Assembly (NCBI GenBank): GCA_903879985.1
Contig: CAIRNR010000007.1
Span: forward strand, 465,519-529,518
From: an uncultured candidate division WWE3 bacterium
Lineage (GTDB): Bacteria > Patescibacteriota > WWE3 > UBA101185 > UBA10185
Length of the DNA stretch: 64,000 bases
Reading direction: 5' to 3'
In this document: piece after piece, positions 58,470 through 64,000 of the stretch
Layout: each line of letters opens with the position of its first letter
Numbering within the stretch: the first letter of the stretch is position 1
Made by a program: the position numbers and the translations under genes
Notes under the pieces: generated by a model
The model's input: only the letters and a program-made list of their open reading frames with translations
What the model was told of the DNA's origin: nothing
The model's database searches: none

Positions 58470-59906
58470 TTAAGAATTTGATCCTGGTTCAGGATGAATG
58501 CTAGCGGTGTGCCTAAGGTATGCAAGTCGAGCGGTCTTTTCTCGCAAGAGATTTGACAGCGGCGAACGGCTGAGTAACACGTAGGAATCTACCCCTAAGT
58601 AGAGGATAGCCCCGCGAAAGCGGGAGTAATACTCTATGTGATGGAAACATCAAAGACGCAAGTCGCTTGGGGATGAGCCTGCGGCCTATCAGGTAGTTGG
58701 CGGGGTAAATGCCCACCAAGCCTATGACGGGTAGCTGGTGTTAGCGCATGACCAGCCAGAAGGGCACTGAGACACGGGCCTTACTCCTACGGGAGGCAGC
58801 AATCGGGAATCTTCCGCAATGGACGAAAGTCTGACGGAGCGACACCGCGTGAGGGATGACGGCCTTCGGGTTGTAAACCTCGTTATAAGCACCGGCTAAC
58901 TACGTGCCAGCAGCAGCGGTCATACGTAGGGTGCAAGCATTATCCGGTCTTACTGGGCGTAAAGAGTTCTGTAGGCGGTCATTCAAGTTGGGGGTCAAAT
59001 ACCACGGCTCAACCGTGGAAAGGCTTTCAATACTGTTTGACTAAGAGTCAGCTAGGGGATAGCGGAACGTATGGTGTAGCAGTGAAATGCGTTGATATCA
59101 TACGGAACACCAAGGGGGAAGCCAGCTATCTGGGGCTGTACTGACGCTGAGAGACGAAAGCGTGGGGAGCGAAACGGATTAGATACCCGTGTAGTCCACG
59201 CTGTAAACCATGCCTGCTAGATGCCTGATTTTTTGGGTGTCGAAGCTAACGCGTTAAGCAGGCCGCCTGGGGAGTACGGTCGCAAGATTAAAACTCAAAG
59301 GAATTGGCGGGGACCCGCACAAGCGGTGGAGCATGCTCTTTAATTGGCTGATAACCCAAGAACCTTACCAGGGCTTGACATGTATGAAGTAGAAACCTGA
59401 AAGGGGGACGACCGGTATCCAACCCGGAACTTACACAGGTGTTGCATGGCTGTCGTCAGCTCGTACCGTGAGGCGTACCCTTAAGTGGGTCAACGAGCGC
59501 AACCCCTACTGCTAGTTGTATCACTCTAGCGGAACTGCCGCGGCAACGCGGAGGAAGGTGGGGATGACGTCAAGTCGGTATTGCCCTTACGCCCTGGGCT
59601 AGAAGCATGCTACAATGGCCGGTACAAAGGGTCGCAAAGCCGCGAGGCTGAGCTAATCCCAAAAAGCCGGTCCCAGTTCGGATTGGAGTCTGCAATTCGA
59701 CTCCATGAAGCCGGAATCGCTAGTAATCGTTGGTCAGACATACAACGGTGAATACGTTCTCGGGTCTTGCACACACTGCCCGTCACGCCAGCAAAGCTGG
59801 GGCCACCCGAAGTCTCATCTAGTATGGGCTCACGGTGGAATCAGTGATGAGGGTGAAGTCGTAACAAGGTAGCCGTAGGGGAATCTGCGGCTGGATCACC
59901 TCCTTT
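58470..59906 (+). rRNA. rrs: 16S ribosomal RNA (compact, about 1.44 kb, no intron)
   Basis: 5' AGAATTTGATCCTGGTTCAG, GTGCCAGCAGCAGCGGT, AAGTCGTAACAAGGTAGCCG, and a 3' GGATCACCTCCTTTCT anti-SD. Confidence 0.9.
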
Positions 59907-60310
59907 CTAAGGGAGAAAATCCGTATTTTTGATTGAAGGACCATTGATCTAGTACTTGCTATTAGGAAATGCCTTTGAAATATAAAGTACACTCAACATT
60001 GGATTAGCTCTAAAATGTTGTTTTAATTAGCTGTCGTCAAAACGCCTTTAGACAGCAGAGTAGGTTTTAAAGCGAGCCTAAACTTTTACAACCGGAAGAT
60101 CCTTCTTGCCTTTTGGCACTTGAAATTGAAATTTGTGTAATTAACTCTTAACTTGAATTTAGAAAAAAGCATCCTTAATTGGATGCTTTTTTTTTGAGCT
60201 TTAGCGAGAAAAACGTCAGCAGACATTTTGTGGCTATTATTGAAAACCAGCTGTTCTGGTGGTATAAACTTATTCTTGATACAAAAATCTATGTGAGGAG
60301 GAGAGCGATA

Positions 60311-60943
60311 ATGGAAAAAAACAATTTGCCTGTAGACGAAGCAGCTGGTTTGGTAACGAGAATAATAGAGCAGATAAAAGGAGCAAAGGGCGCGGCTTTC
60401 ACGTATGGAAATATCCGGAAATACCAGGCGCAAGCGGGTATTGGCCACACCGGCGCAAAATTCAATCGAACCGAATGGGAATGTGCGTGGCGGACAGTGT
60501 TGGATATGCCTGATATTAAAATCCTGTGCGGTAGCGGTCTTCACGCCAGTGTTTATTACTTACCTGGGGCTAAGGATGCTACCAAAAATGGTAAAAATGG
60601 CAAAATTATCCAACCGGCTGTTGATATGACTCCGGTTATCGAGGCTCAACCCCCAGCCGCTAAGCAAGAATCAGCGCCTACGGTTGCAGTTCCTGCACGT
60701 CGCCCATTGGTTGAAAAAAGGCAGCCCACGGTTAAAACCAAACGTGCGGTGGTAACAAAGAAAGATCATGTAATCCTGTCCGGCGTGCAAGTAACGTGGG
60801 AAGGCACCATTCCTCTGACGCTGTCGCTGGAAAAAGGACAAACAATCCAGGTGGAGCAGCACAATAGAGATGGGGAAAGTCTTGGCATGTTTACACTAAA
60901 TGGTCCATGCACGATTACTCTGAAAAAAGTTATCCGGGAATAA
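60311..60943 (+). CDS. Hypothetical protein, GC-rich (about 50%) gene lying between 16S and 23S
   Basis: 210 aa from the Met preceded by a GAGGAGG SD, with a terminator downstream. I recognise no family. Confidence 0.5.
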   Translation: MEKNNLPVDEAAGLVTRIIEQIKGAKGAAFTYGNIRKYQAQAGIGHTGAKFNRTEWECAWRTVLDMPDIKILCGSGLHASVYYLPGAKDATKNGKNGKIIQPAVDMTPVIEAQPPAAKQESAPTVAVPARRPLVEKRQPTVKTKRAVVTKKDHVILSGVQVTWEGTIPLTLSLEKGQTIQVEQHNRDGESLGMFTLNGPCTITLKKVIRE

Positions 60944-60969
60944 TTTAAAATCTGGTTAACAATCAATAG

Positions 60970-61008
60970 GCGGTCGCTTGTTTTAATAACATCCGGCCGC
61001 TTTTTTTT
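60970..61008 (+). terminator. Intrinsic terminator
   Basis: gcggtcg...cggccgc stem followed by tttttttt. Confidence 0.5.
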
Positions 61009-61021
61009 GTGTTTGGGTAAA

Positions 61022-61800: not shown

Positions 61801-61801
61801 T

Positions 61802-62806
61802 ATGAATAAAAAAGTAAATCCTAGAATAGTTACTGTCGGTGGAGGTACCGGTACTTTTGTTGTTTTATCCGGACTCAAAGATTATCCCCTAAATTTGTCA
61901 TCTATTGTTACTATGATGGACTCTGGTGGGTCTACGGGTAGATTACGTGATCAGTTGGGTGTTTTACCGCCTGGTGACTTGCGACAAGCCTTGGTAGCGC
62001 TGTCAGATTCAAAAGAGATATGGCGCAAGCTTTTTACTTATCGTTTTGAGAGTGGTGACTTAAAAGGTCACAACTTTGGAAACATTTTTATTTCAGCTTT
62101 AGAAAAAATAACTGGTTCAACTGCAGAGGCTATTAATTTGGCAACCGAAATTCTGCAAACAAAAGGAAATGTTTATCCTGTGACACTTTCAAATTGCACA
62201 TTGTGTGCCGGCTATGCAGATGGTTCCGTGGTTGAAGGTGAATCTAACATTGAAGAAATAGTTAAAGAGGGAAATAAGATTACACGCATGTACTTAACTC
62301 CCTCCGCTGTAATGAATTTGGAGGCTAAAAAAGAGCTGGAAAACGCCGATTTCATCATATTTGGCCCTGGTGACCTGTACACAAGTATTATTCCAAATCT
62401 ACTGGTCGAAGGCATGCCAGAAGTTTTGGCTTATTCCAGGGCAAAAAAGATTTTTATATTAAATGTTATGACTCGGTATGGACAGACCGATGGTTTTAAA
62501 TCTACAGATTTTATTTTCGAACTGGAAAGATATTTAGGAGGTATTTCATTAGATTATATTTTCATTAACGAAACTCGCCCAAGTCAGGAGGTTTTAGACT
62601 GGTATAGAGAGGTAGATAAGGCTCATTTTGTAGAAGATACAACTTTTGGAGGCTATTTTGACAATAGAAAGATACTAAGAGGTGATTTTTTGTCCAAAAA
62701 TAGGGTCGTTCAAGCGGCAAACGATCATGTAAAAAGGAGCCTAATTCGGCATGATCCAGACAAGATAGCAGAGGCTATTTATAAGCTTGTTGACAGAGAA
62801 TTTTAA
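61802..62806 (+). CDS. YvcK/CofD-family (UPF0052, gluconeogenesis-factor-like) protein
   Basis: IVTVGGGTGTFVVLSGLK, MMDSGGSTGRLRD, LPPGDLRQALVAL. Confidence 0.8.
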   Translation: MNKKVNPRIVTVGGGTGTFVVLSGLKDYPLNLSSIVTMMDSGGSTGRLRDQLGVLPPGDLRQALVALSDSKEIWRKLFTYRFESGDLKGHNFGNIFISALEKITGSTAEAINLATEILQTKGNVYPVTLSNCTLCAGYADGSVVEGESNIEEIVKEGNKITRMYLTPSAVMNLEAKKELENADFIIFGPGDLYTSIIPNLLVEGMPEVLAYSRAKKIFILNVMTRYGQTDGFKSTDFIFELERYLGGISLDYIFINETRPSQEVLDWYREVDKAHFVEDTTFGGYFDNRKILRGDFLSKNRVVQAANDHVKRSLIRHDPDKIAEAIYKLVDREF

Positions 62807-62991
62807 TAATGGTACATATGTATTTACCTTTTAGGAATTCAACTTCCTCAGGACTTAGGTCCATTTCTTGGAGTCACAAAACTTCAAGGAAGCTCTGAAT
62901 ATCCAAGTCAAACGTGAAATATAAATAAGTTAGTAAATGCGCCTTGATGTATAAGCTTAGTGCTGATAGACTGTGTAAGCTTTATGCGTCG

Positions 62992-63068
62992 GGGCCGTTA
63001 GCTCAGTTGGCTAGAGCGCTACATTTGCAATGTAGAGGTCAGGAGTTCGATTCTCCTACGGTCCACCA
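62992..63068 (+). tRNA. tRNA-Ala (anticodon UGC), CCA encoded
   Basis: GGGCCGT-TA-GCTC-AGTTGGCTA-GAGC-G-CTACA-TTTGCAA-TGTAG-AGGTC-AGGAG-TTCGATT-CTCCT-ACGGTCC-A-CCA, including the G3:U70 Ala identity pair. Confidence 0.85.
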
Positions 63069-63404
63069 AAAAGGTTTCGATTTTTTGTTTTGAAAACGCA
63101 CTCGCAAAGCTCGCGAAGTTTTCTTCAACAAAAAATCTACGCCACTGTGTTAATGCAGGTTAGTGAAAAATGCTTTGTTTAAGATTCCGTACGGTGAGGT
63201 TTAAATACTTTGCCATACGAAACTTTAAACAAAGTTGCGATACATCGCAGCTCAAAGTTTCGACTACGTCGAAGCTTTGCCGCTCGCTATGCTCGCAGCA
63301 AAGTGGATCTTTGAAAACTGAACAGAAAGTATCCAACAATTGAAAAACTCACAAACTTGAGGATCATCTCCCAGCCTTGGCGAGATGGTCTGTAGGTTTT
63401 TTAG

Positions 63405-64000
63405 TGATATTTAAGATATTAATGTATGCGGTGGATGCCTTGGGTCTTTGTGCCGATGAAGGAAGTGTTAGGCTGCTATAAGCTTCGAGAAGCTGCCAAA
63501 AAGCGTTATTACTCGGAGATCTCCGAATGGGAAAACCCGGTCCGACGTTGAGTCGAGATCACCCATTGCTAAAAGTCTCGCAAGAGATATAGGCGATGTG
63601 GAGGGAACTTGGTGAACTGAAACAACTTAGTAACCAAAGGAAAATAGATCAAATTAGATATTCCCCTAGTAGCGGCGAGCGAACGGGGAACAGCCCAAAC
63701 CCATCCTTTTAAGTATGGGGGTATGGACAAACCTGTATTACCGGCTTGACCGGTAGGAGGAGTTACAAATTTTTTTCGTAGAAGAAGTCGCTTGGAAAGG
63801 CGCGCCATAGAAGGTAATAGCCCTGTATTCGAAACGAAAGATACTCTTGGGTTTGATCCTGAGTAGCACGGGTCACGTGTAACCCTGTGTGAATAAACGA
63901 CGACCACGTCGTAAGGCTAAATACACAAAGACACCGATAGCGCATAGTACCGTGAGGGAAAGGTGAAAAGAACCCCTGTTAGGGGAGTGAAATAGAAACT
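63405..64000 (+). rRNA. rrl: 23S ribosomal RNA, 5' portion (continues past window end)
   Basis: GCGGTGGATGCCTTGG, GCCGATGAAGGAAGTG, CCGAATGGGAAAACCC, GTGAACTGAAACA. Confidence 0.85.

Follow-up and report, generated by a model that had tools for sequence, protein, structure and literature searches.

The ribosomal RNA (rRNA) locus described here lies at the end of a 64,000-nucleotide stretch of DNA (the window; contig CAIRNR010000007.1 of NCBI GenBank assembly GCA_903879985.1, positions 465,519 to 529,518) from an uncultured bacterium of candidate division WWE3. Its 16S and 23S genes are separated by 3,502 bp, with Rfam placing the end of the former at 59906 and the start of the latter at 63409, essentially where an earlier inspection of the letters alone (the sequence-only reading) had put them (about 59906 and 63405). 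Within this spacer, ARAGORN, Rfam and open reading frame (ORF) calls find what that reading had listed, namely three protein genes on the plus strand (ORF1, ORF2 and a gene for YvcK), a transfer RNA gene on the opposite strand, tRNA-Ile(GAU), and a tRNA-Ala(UGC) gene in the sense orientation (Table 1). These are the only two tRNA genes that ARAGORN and Rfam report in the window, and tRNA-Ile is the only gene of the spacer locus that departs from the common strand. When the YvcK protein was compared with 185,579 species genomes, its nearest relatives came from WWE3 (Katanobacteria) and other bacteria belonging to the Candidate Phyla Radiation (CPR), with 58 to 63% identity, and the source belongs to the WWE3/Katanobacteria lineage of the CPR. 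We consider it probable that the locus has a split rRNA layout that the clade inherited and that works as independent units, that ORF1 and ORF2 are species-specific additions to it, and that its tRNA-Ile, in which C has replaced U at position 55 (U55C) as a fixed change, is probably a working tRNA.

The layout is shared with relatives. We compared five WWE3/Katanobacteria genomes (L001, L002, L003, L004 and L080, the last being the complete genome RAAC2_WWE3_1, CP006914). Four of them (L002, L003, L004 and L080) have the order 16S (plus), tRNA-Ile(GAU) (minus), YvcK (plus), tRNA-Ala (plus), 23S and 5S, and L001, a short contig, has this order as far as YvcK, with tRNA-Ile again inverted. The window's 16S shares about 94% identity with the 16S genes of L002, L003 and L080, and the distance from 16S to 23S in the relatives ranges from 1,969 to 3,702 bp. 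A more distant lineage retains the same order around insertions of 4 to 8 kb of ordinary genes: L008 (16S 86% identical) carries 16S, inverted tRNA-Ile and YvcK with about 4 kb of such genes in each gap, and L018, which has no 16S on the locus, carries inverted tRNA-Ile, about 7.6 kb of such genes and then YvcK, tRNA-Ala, 23S and 5S. The placement of YvcK upstream of tRNA-Ala and 23S is thus kept in L002, L003, L004, L080 and L018.

Since the order recurs in five WWE3 relatives and among the L008/L018 loci, this comparison makes the inverted tRNA-Ile and the spacer YvcK the ancestral organization of the clade and not a local event. The sequence-only reading had seen in the GC-rich gene beside an inverted tRNA the likeness of an insertion or inversion at a tRNA, and had pointed to synteny among relatives as one way to judge it. 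That proposal survives only in part, since the inverted tRNA-Ile and YvcK are present in all five relatives, whereas ORF1 and ORF2 are found only in this species and ORF1 does resemble a recent foreign insertion. With the inverted tRNA-Ile being clade-wide, an old inversion and a recent gain of ORF1 would therefore be separate events.

Table 1. Genes and predicted signals of the WWE3 rRNA locus (window coordinates)
Feature	Position	Strand	Basis and remarks
Putative 16S promoter	58187..58215	+	-35 TTGACT (58187-58192), 17-nt spacer, extended -10 TGaTATTAA (58207-58215); read from the sequence
16S processing stem, 5' half (leader)	58381..58440	+	Pairs with 60071-60132
16S rRNA	58466..59906	+	Rfam RF00177, 1386.9 bits, model positions 1-1533; 1,441 nt, without insertions
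16S processing stem, 3' half (trailer)	60071..60132	+	Pairs with leader; sequence conserved with relatives up to the terminator
Two-way intrinsic terminator (predicted) after 16S unit	60163..60195	both	A6-GCATCC-TTAATT-GGATGC-T9
Putative ORF1 promoter	60240..60268	+	TTGAAA, 17-nt spacer, TGgTATAAA
ORF1, 210 aa	60311..60943	+	ORF; GC-rich, species-specific, cargo of the variable slot
ORF1 terminator (predicted)	60970..61008	+	Hairpin and T8, ΔG -15.1
tRNA-Ile(GAU)	61028..61104	-	ARAGORN; Rfam 70.0 bits; inverted relative to the rRNA genes
Back-to-back candidate promoters	61120..61152	both	Plus: ATAACA, 18-nt spacer, TGgTATACT (ORF2-YvcK); minus: TGtTATCAT (61128 to 61120, tRNA-Ile)
ORF2, 213 aa	61159..61800	+	ORF; species-specific, membrane-anchored (predicted)
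YvcK, 334 aa	61802..62806	+	Pfam PF01933, TIGR01826
Putative tRNA-Ala-23S-5S promoter	62944..62972	+	TTGATG, 17-nt spacer, TGaTAGACT
tRNA-Ala(UGC)	62992..63068	+	ARAGORN, Rfam; canonical TTCGATT T-loop
23S processing stem, 5' half	63213..63364	+	Includes the GATCTTTGAAAACTGAACAGAAAGT block, from about 63306
23S rRNA, 5' part	63409..64000	+	Rfam; continues beyond the window end

Several features suggest that the 16S gene forms a transcription unit of its own. A promoter-like TTGAC(T/A)...TGATATT block lies roughly 250 to 280 nt upstream of 16S in the window and 125 to 165 nt upstream in the relatives, where it reads TTGACA...ATATTGATATT in L002, L003, L004 and L080. The leader and trailer of 16S are complementary, with a pairing energy (ΔG) of -40.8 compared to -16.6 ± 3.2 for shuffled sequences, and a homologous stem of partly different sequence is present in L002, L003 and L080 (-41 to -43, compared to -24 to -28 in shuffles). 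Located 30 nt past the trailer is a perfect 12-nt inverted repeat, from which a hairpin with a T-run is detected on either strand, as expected of a two-way intrinsic terminator. A counterpart hairpin and T-run occurs 316 to 404 nt downstream of 16S in L002, L003, L004 and L080, and in L003 and L004 it comes to within about 30 to 90 nt of the convergent tRNA-Ile gene's 3' end.

A second unit would comprise tRNA-Ala, 23S and 5S. Twenty nucleotides upstream of tRNA-Ala there is a promoter-like TTGAxx-17-TAxACT sequence, which aligns with TTGAAA-17-TAAACT in L002, L003, L004 and L080 and in which TTGA is invariant. For the region between 23S and 5S we used L082 (ENA assembly ERZ27313068), a contig from another sample that is identical to the window and in which 23S occupies positions 4211-7192 (a full gene of 2,982 nt) and 5S follows downstream at 7370-7483. 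The 5' flank of 23S pairs with the 23S-5S spacer of this contig (7193-7339) with a ΔG of -99.0, compared to -59.0 ± 6.8 for shuffled sequences. In contrast, the cross-controls gave values near those of their shuffles, both for the 16S leader with the 23S trailer (-47.8 versus -48.8) and for the 23S leader with the 16S trailer (-65.1 versus -59.5). The GATCTTTGAAAACTGAACAGAAAGT block of the 23S stem is kept in all relatives, and a boxA-like block, GATCTTTGAAAAC, is also found upstream of 23S. The spacer between tRNA-Ala and 23S (63069-63408) is 340 nt long in the window compared to 158 to 162 nt in the relatives, and its approximately 180 additional nucleotides lengthen the 23S processing stem, with a matching extension in the 23S-5S spacer of L082.

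Between these two units, candidate promoters stand back to back in the interval that separates tRNA-Ile from ORF2. For ORF2 and YvcK, the candidate -10 element stops just 6 nt short of the ORF2 ATG. In the relatives, a -10-like hexamer (TATGAT, TATCAT, TATTAT or TATACT) lies 7 to 12 nt before the ATG of YvcK, and a conserved TGCTAGAAT is present on the tRNA-Ile side. The product of 61802-62806 is, by its profile scores, YvcK, a member of the CofD-related UDP-N-acetylglucosamine-binding protein family, as the sequence-only reading had proposed at the level of a YvcK/CofD-family protein: the match to Pfam PF01933 (CofD) has an E-value of 7.9e-83, and NCBIfam TIGR01826 scores 302.4 bits, above its cut-off of 196, with residues 9-330 covering profile positions 1-309 of 310. 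Assignment as CofD proper was rejected, because the equivalog for coenzyme F420 CofD scores just 14 bits.

ORF2 ends 1 nt before the start of YvcK and is absent from the relatives, in which only 56 to 139 nt separate tRNA-Ile from YvcK. A homologue search with ORF2 returned matches to itself only, and in GC content and codon usage it matches what is usual for the genome. The AlphaFold2 model, made with no alignment, is unusable overall (mean predicted local distance difference test score, pLDDT, 46.5), and confidence is limited to an N-terminal helix (residues 6-36; pLDDT 94 for residues 11-20). This predicted helix fits a signal anchor, which agrees with the description of ORF2 as signal-anchored in the sequence-only reading.

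ORF1 has a different character. Its GC content is 47.7%, with a peak of 50% in 300-nt windows, compared to a mean of 37.5% (standard deviation 2.6) for the 52 ORFs of the window, and with z-scores of +3.9 for GC, +3.6 for GC at third codon positions (GC3) and -4.3 for codon usage it is the most atypical of these 52, which served as the baseline. The figure of about 50% GC given by the sequence-only reading was thus slightly too high, being the peak, while the compositional contrast itself is real. The gene also has the signals that had been ascribed to it, including a Shine-Dalgarno sequence (GAGGAGG at 60295-60301, 9 nt upstream of the ATG) and a predicted terminator. The hexamers of its putative promoter are kept in L081 (NCBI GCA_903994745.1), a slightly divergent strain, although the sequence between and around them diverges. 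Specifically, positions 60194-60255 of the window differ from 8390-8455 of L081 at 20 places in about 60 nt, including a 3-nt indel, whereas the flanking 16S, ORF1, tRNA-Ile, ORF2 and YvcK genes show 0 to 1 differences. The patch, which falls between the predicted terminator behind 16S and the -10 element of the putative ORF1 promoter, is a local hypervariable or recombined stretch where the ORF1 cassette has its left edge.

ORF1 looks like a real gene. Its codon pattern (GC1 > GC2 ~ GC3) is coding-like, and population variants have a single variable residue in the 210-amino acid core. Because the 44 codons upstream of this core are variable and carry indels, the ATG at 60311 is the true start and a gene call of 254 amino acids is wrong. 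Among 5.8 billion proteins ORF1 matches only itself, and the same holds for a HMMER scan of 1.84 billion representatives apart from one weak match (E = 1e-6 over 54 residues) to a 2,234-amino acid protein with an SMP domain and many C2 domains, similar to eukaryotic extended synaptotagmins, which we judged to be compositional or spurious and which lends no support to any function. No match was found in Pfam, PHROGs, NCBIfam, PADLOC or collections of phage and plasmid sequences, and an AlphaFold2 model made with no alignment (mean pLDDT 40.6) is unusable. The second most atypical ORF of the window (24000-24629, plus strand; 209 amino acids, GC 45.1%, GC3 41.9%, no Pfam match) lies directly upstream of a FemAB-family gene (24704-25639; aminoacyl-tRNA-dependent formation of the peptidoglycan bridge). 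We considered whether this ORF is a paralogue of ORF1, and the two have no similarity (E = 1.9).

The slot that ORF1 occupies, between 16S and tRNA-Ile, varies in length and content. It measures 352 nt in L003, 484 nt in L004, 750 to 2,099 nt in L001, L002 and L080, and 1,121 nt in the window, and its cargo is unrelated from genome to genome, including a TPR protein, a GreA-N-like protein and hypothetical proteins. ORF1 itself looks like a recently acquired foreign gene, and ORF1 and ORF2 are, by these searches and comparisons, the only parts of the locus that are specific to this species.

The tRNA-Ile gene, read as the reverse complement, is GGGTGATTAGCTCAGTTGGTTAGAGCGCTTCTCTGATAAGGAAGAGGTCCCAGGTCCGATTCCTGGATCACCCACCA. 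Its T-loop is TCCGATT, in which C55 corresponds to G at plus-strand position 61049. The sequence-only reading had called this loop atypical, and the base is genuine: the tRNA-Ile sequence is identical in L081 and L082, which are independent assemblies, and both carry C and not T. All other expected features are retained, including U8, A14, G18-G19, U33, G53-C61, T54, C56, A58, the discriminator base and an encoded CCA, and only the U at position 55 is missing. ARAGORN calls the gene tRNA-Ile(gat), and its Rfam score of 70.0 bits equals that of the neighboring tRNA-Ala. The tRNA-Ile(GAU) genes of all seven relatives have T55 (TTCGA), and those of the closest relatives differ from the gene of the window only by C17U and U55C. 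Because T55 is present in all seven relatives and C55 in independent assemblies, U55C is a derived change that is fixed in this species.

The loop is not unique to this organism. A metagenome scan that targeted tRNA-Ile(GAU) only, and whose counts therefore give no ratio of C55 to U55 and cover no other tRNA type, found C55 in at least 120 stretches (L085-L204) with at least 106 distinct sequences. At least 75 other distinct tRNA-Ile(GAU) sequences with C55 are structurally intact, with acceptor stems 96 to 97% paired, T stems 100% paired and many different stem sequences. These include at least 32 ordinary 77-nt genes on varied contigs, one of which (L105) lies inside a canonical 16S-Ile-Ala-23S-5S operon. 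At least 43 others form a family of 73 to 75 nt on low-GC contigs that in some cases reach about 0.7 Mb; among the matches listed, this family has 30 acceptor stems (97% paired), 10 T stems (100% paired) and an invariant TCCGAT core. ARAGORN calls these genes tRNA-Ile. Judging from the intact stems, a tRNA-Ile(GAU) can be maintained with C55, which arose more than once. Among the matches listed, the tRNAs that neighbor C55 genes have T55 in 67 cases and true C55 in about 4, with the C cases all in two tRNA-array loci; specificity of C55 for tRNA-Ile is a lead suggested by these numbers, and not a result.

Of the two modes of transcription that the sequence-only reading had considered, separate units and one very long precursor that carries mRNAs, the first is favored. 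Most likely, 16S and the tRNA-Ala-23S-5S genes are transcribed separately, because either set comes with a putative promoter and a processing stem to itself, and 16S is followed by a conserved, predicted terminator. Several points weigh against our interpretation of the locus. All promoters and terminators named here are sequence predictions, and a generic promoter scan of the region returned 7 sites, fewer than the 11.8 in shuffled sequences. The hairpin after 16S is short and weak, with just 6 G/C-containing pairs and a ΔG of about -9, and some terminators are passed by rRNA antitermination complexes. No terminator was detected from YvcK to the tRNA-Ala promoter, and some YvcK transcripts may enter tRNA-Ala and 23S. 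Moreover, the assemblies with C55 all represent near-identical strains and amount to a single evolutionary observation, and the copy number of tRNA-Ile(GAU) is the one seen within the 64-kb window. The weak hairpin and the terminator-free interval also count in favor of the long precursor, in which read-through from the 16S promoter would pass ORF1, the antisense of tRNA-Ile, ORF2, YvcK and tRNA-Ala to reach 23S and 5S, as do the shared strand of every gene except tRNA-Ile and the boxA-like block upstream of 23S. However, such a transcript would have two hairpins with runs of 8 or 9 T residues in its path (60163-60195 and 60970-61008), the first of which is kept in position in four relatives, and it would carry an antisense tRNA-Ile. 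Furthermore, 16S and 23S each possess a private strong stem, with no pairing of the 16S leader to the 23S trailer beyond that of shuffles, a conserved putative promoter precedes tRNA-Ala immediately, and among the L008/L018 loci a distance of more than 8 kb, which includes unrelated operons, separates these genes. A single long precursor is therefore very unlikely.

Two further alternatives concern the unusual contents of the spacer. One possibility is that ORF1 came with a small integrative element aimed at the tRNA-Ile 3' end, in the manner of classical tRNA-linked genomic islets, and that only the cargo gene of this element is left. The location of ORF1 directly downstream of this 3' end, its atypical composition and the variability of the slot among relatives would all fit, and the slot of L001 holds an 11-nt copy of its own tRNA T-arm that was matched by 0 of 300 shuffles. 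The window holds, at 60254-60262, a 9-nt copy (TTCTGGTGG) of the tRNA 3' end with its flank (61024-61032), but 29 of 300 shuffles contain an equally good repeat, such that an attachment-site-like direct repeat around ORF1 is statistically unsupported. In addition, there is no integrase or recombinase in or beside the slot (59907-61027), which contains only ORF1, a gene with no family match and no phage or plasmid homologue, and the cargo of the other genomes lacks the hallmarks of mobile elements. We regard this origin as rather unlikely, and favor an acquired gene at a variable site. The other alternative is that the C55 tRNA-Ile is a decaying or nontranslational copy whose role is filled by a canonical tRNA-Ile(GAU) elsewhere, or that C55 is an error of sequencing or assembly. 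The error is excluded by the presence of the same base in separate samples and sources (GCA_903994745.1 and ERZ27313068, which derive from lake and groundwater metagenomes). CPR genomes usually have one rRNA locus and one tRNA-Ile(GAU), which speaks against a second copy. Decay is likewise difficult to reconcile with a gene that has only one other difference (C17U), intact conserved positions and CCA, an Rfam score equal to those of its neighbors, a conserved single-copy position in the rRNA locus of every relative, and a change stably retained by many further lineages of tRNA-Ile(GAU), whose stems show compensatory changes. The near-universality of U55, whose pseudouridine (Psi) makes a conserved tertiary contact with G18 (PMC7609411), and the T55 of all seven relatives are the points in favor of a defective copy. 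We find this explanation hard to credit, and the C55 tRNA-Ile most likely remains a working tRNA-Ile(GAU).

These considerations can be assembled into a model for the history and workings of the locus. An old inversion of tRNA-Ile(GAU) would have split an ancestral 16S-tRNAIle-tRNAAla-23S-5S operon into independent units, and the whole clade would have inherited this layout at a single rRNA locus. In the first unit, a promoter would drive 16S, whose own leader and trailer form a stem, as far as the two-way intrinsic terminator. The second, tRNA-Ile, would be transcribed on the opposite strand toward the same terminator, and the third, YvcK, would be read in the direction leading away from tRNA-Ile, its promoter giving a very short leader. 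The conserved promoter next to tRNA-Ala would drive the fourth unit, consisting of tRNA-Ala, 23S (bracketed by a long stem of its own) and 5S. Both breakpoints beside tRNA-Ile would be permissive sites that gain lineage-specific genes, which in this species are ORF1, probably a recent foreign gene equipped with its own promoter, Shine-Dalgarno sequence and terminator, and ORF2, probably encoding a membrane-anchored protein and lying behind the YvcK promoter, ahead of YvcK itself. The U55C change in tRNA-Ile would have arisen within the lineage of this species, where it is now fixed.

Several additional observations were made at the locus. The 16S gene is compact, as the sequence-only reading had remarked (about 1.44 kb). 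This is true at 1,441 nt, but it is typical of the lineage (1,436 nt in relatives), and the shortness derives in part from a 49-nt deletion (model positions of about 437-486) and a reduced helix near 180-200. The rRNA genes of the window species are free of insertions (23S being taken from L082), unlike the insertion-bearing rRNA genes of relatives. The 16S of L004 spans 2,494 nt (6756-9249) and its 23S spans 5.1 kb (11358-16461) with a match to a group I intron, and the 23S genes of L002, L003 and L080 are 3.8 to 4.1 kb long (for example, L080 11373-15502 and L002 11405-15227), indicating large insertions. In L008, an ORF at 298-1062 with an LGSLLGD motif, which resembles a LAGLIDADG endonuclease (by eye only), adjoins a fragmented 16S match.

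Between the stop codon of YvcK and the tRNA-Ala promoter, at about 62836-62905, there is a conserved block (GGAATTyAmCTTCC ... AAGCTCTGAATnTCC) that is also present in L002, L003, L004 and L080. A structured RNA at this site is unsupported, with RNAalifold giving -7.2 kcal/mol and zero compensatory pairs, and the block may mark a processing site or act as an upstream promoter element. An apparent 52-nt insertion of L081 at position 62966 contains ten Ns and a duplicated flank, which reflects a scaffolding gap and not biology. By eye, GCTCGC-rich motifs in the spacer between tRNA-Ala and 23S of the window (about 63095-63120 and 63275-63300) resemble a repeat unit of L080, where about three tandem copies of a unit of approximately 42 nt (CAAAGCAATTCCACTCGCTTCGCTCGCAGAATTGATTTACCT) are visible at 9545-9700, in the stretch from the cargo genes to the tRNA-Ile 3' end. 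Directly upstream of the 16S promoter, positions 56803-58176 (plus strand) encode the C-terminal domain of BpsA (branched-chain polyamine synthase, 4.4e-42) fused to an S-adenosylmethionine decarboxylase domain (2.3e-18).

Unlinked rRNA genes, defined by a spacer of more than 1,500 bp, are common and phylogenetically conserved in Patescibacteria, and unlinked pairs are separated by about 410 kb on average (Brewer et al., bioRxiv 10.1101/705046). With its 3,502-bp spacer, protein genes between 16S and 23S, conservation in the clade and membership in Patescibacteria, the locus described here belongs to this class. It differs from the typical case in that the two genes are on the same strand and only 3.5 kb apart, in that the spacer contains one inverted tRNA and a conserved YvcK, and in that tRNA-Ala, 23S and 5S are still arranged as in an operon. 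It is therefore a mild form of unlinked rRNA genes. Compared to a canonical rRNA operon, the locus has the same gene set and order, stems that bracket each large rRNA, a boxA-like block and adjacent 23S and 5S genes (the latter from L082). In contrast, it has an inverted tRNA-Ile, a predicted terminator after 16S, three protein genes in the spacer and a putative tRNA-Ala promoter, whereas a canonical operon has its spacer tRNAs in the sense orientation and neither a terminator nor a protein gene between 16S and 23S. The ORF1 cassette is similar to tRNA-linked islands in that an atypical cargo gene lies directly past a tRNA 3' end at a site that varies between relatives, and differs from them in having no integrase, direct repeats that are nonsignificant and a single gene in 0.8 kb.

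As for the T-loop, noncanonical loops in which position 55 is not U are found in mitochondrial tRNAs and in the pyrrolysine tRNA (tRNAPyl) of Desulfitobacterium, which has C55. In tRNAPyl the D-loop and T-loop system is wholly remodeled (PMC7609411), whereas the tRNA-Ile of the window is an ordinary elongator that is otherwise canonical (G18, G19, T54, C56 and A58). In the literature that we searched, C55 is mentioned only for tRNAPyl, and nothing was found on recurrent U55C in tRNA-Ile(GAU). It is conceivable, if doubtful at present, that U55C is a recurrent, selectively maintained variant specific to tRNA-Ile(GAU) in several uncultured bacterial lineages, including the large low-GC family whose contigs of about 0.7 Mb are the size of genomes, and that it arose independently in this WWE3 species. 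If true, this recurrence would imply a change in T-loop reading that is specific to tRNA-Ile, and candidates would be that TruB no longer forms Psi55 or is kept from doing so, that the contact between G18 and position 55 is altered, or that the tRNA escapes a factor that recognizes the T-loop. Recurrence of C55 in tRNA-Ile(GAU) could interest tRNA biologists if it is upheld with proper denominators.

An arrangement that had looked like a recent insertion or inversion within an rRNA operon turns out to be the conserved, standard one of WWE3/Katanobacteria, and our findings are chiefly a clarification in this respect. A search of the available literature returned no description of the specific WWE3 layout with inverted tRNA-Ile and YvcK, which has been visible in a public genome for years. 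The locus is an ordinary member of the known class of unlinked rRNA genes, and its unusual points are limited to the ORF1 and ORF2 cargo and C55. For the lineage as a whole, the split-locus model would mean that each half of the former operon has its private promoter, processing stem and, after 16S, terminator, that YvcK, a housekeeping gene, is fixed upstream of tRNA-Ala and 23S, and that the breakpoints beside tRNA-Ile act as gene sinks. Such an arrangement has consequences for 16S-internal transcribed spacer-23S amplicons, for the binning of CPR genomes on the basis of rRNA operons and for annotation.

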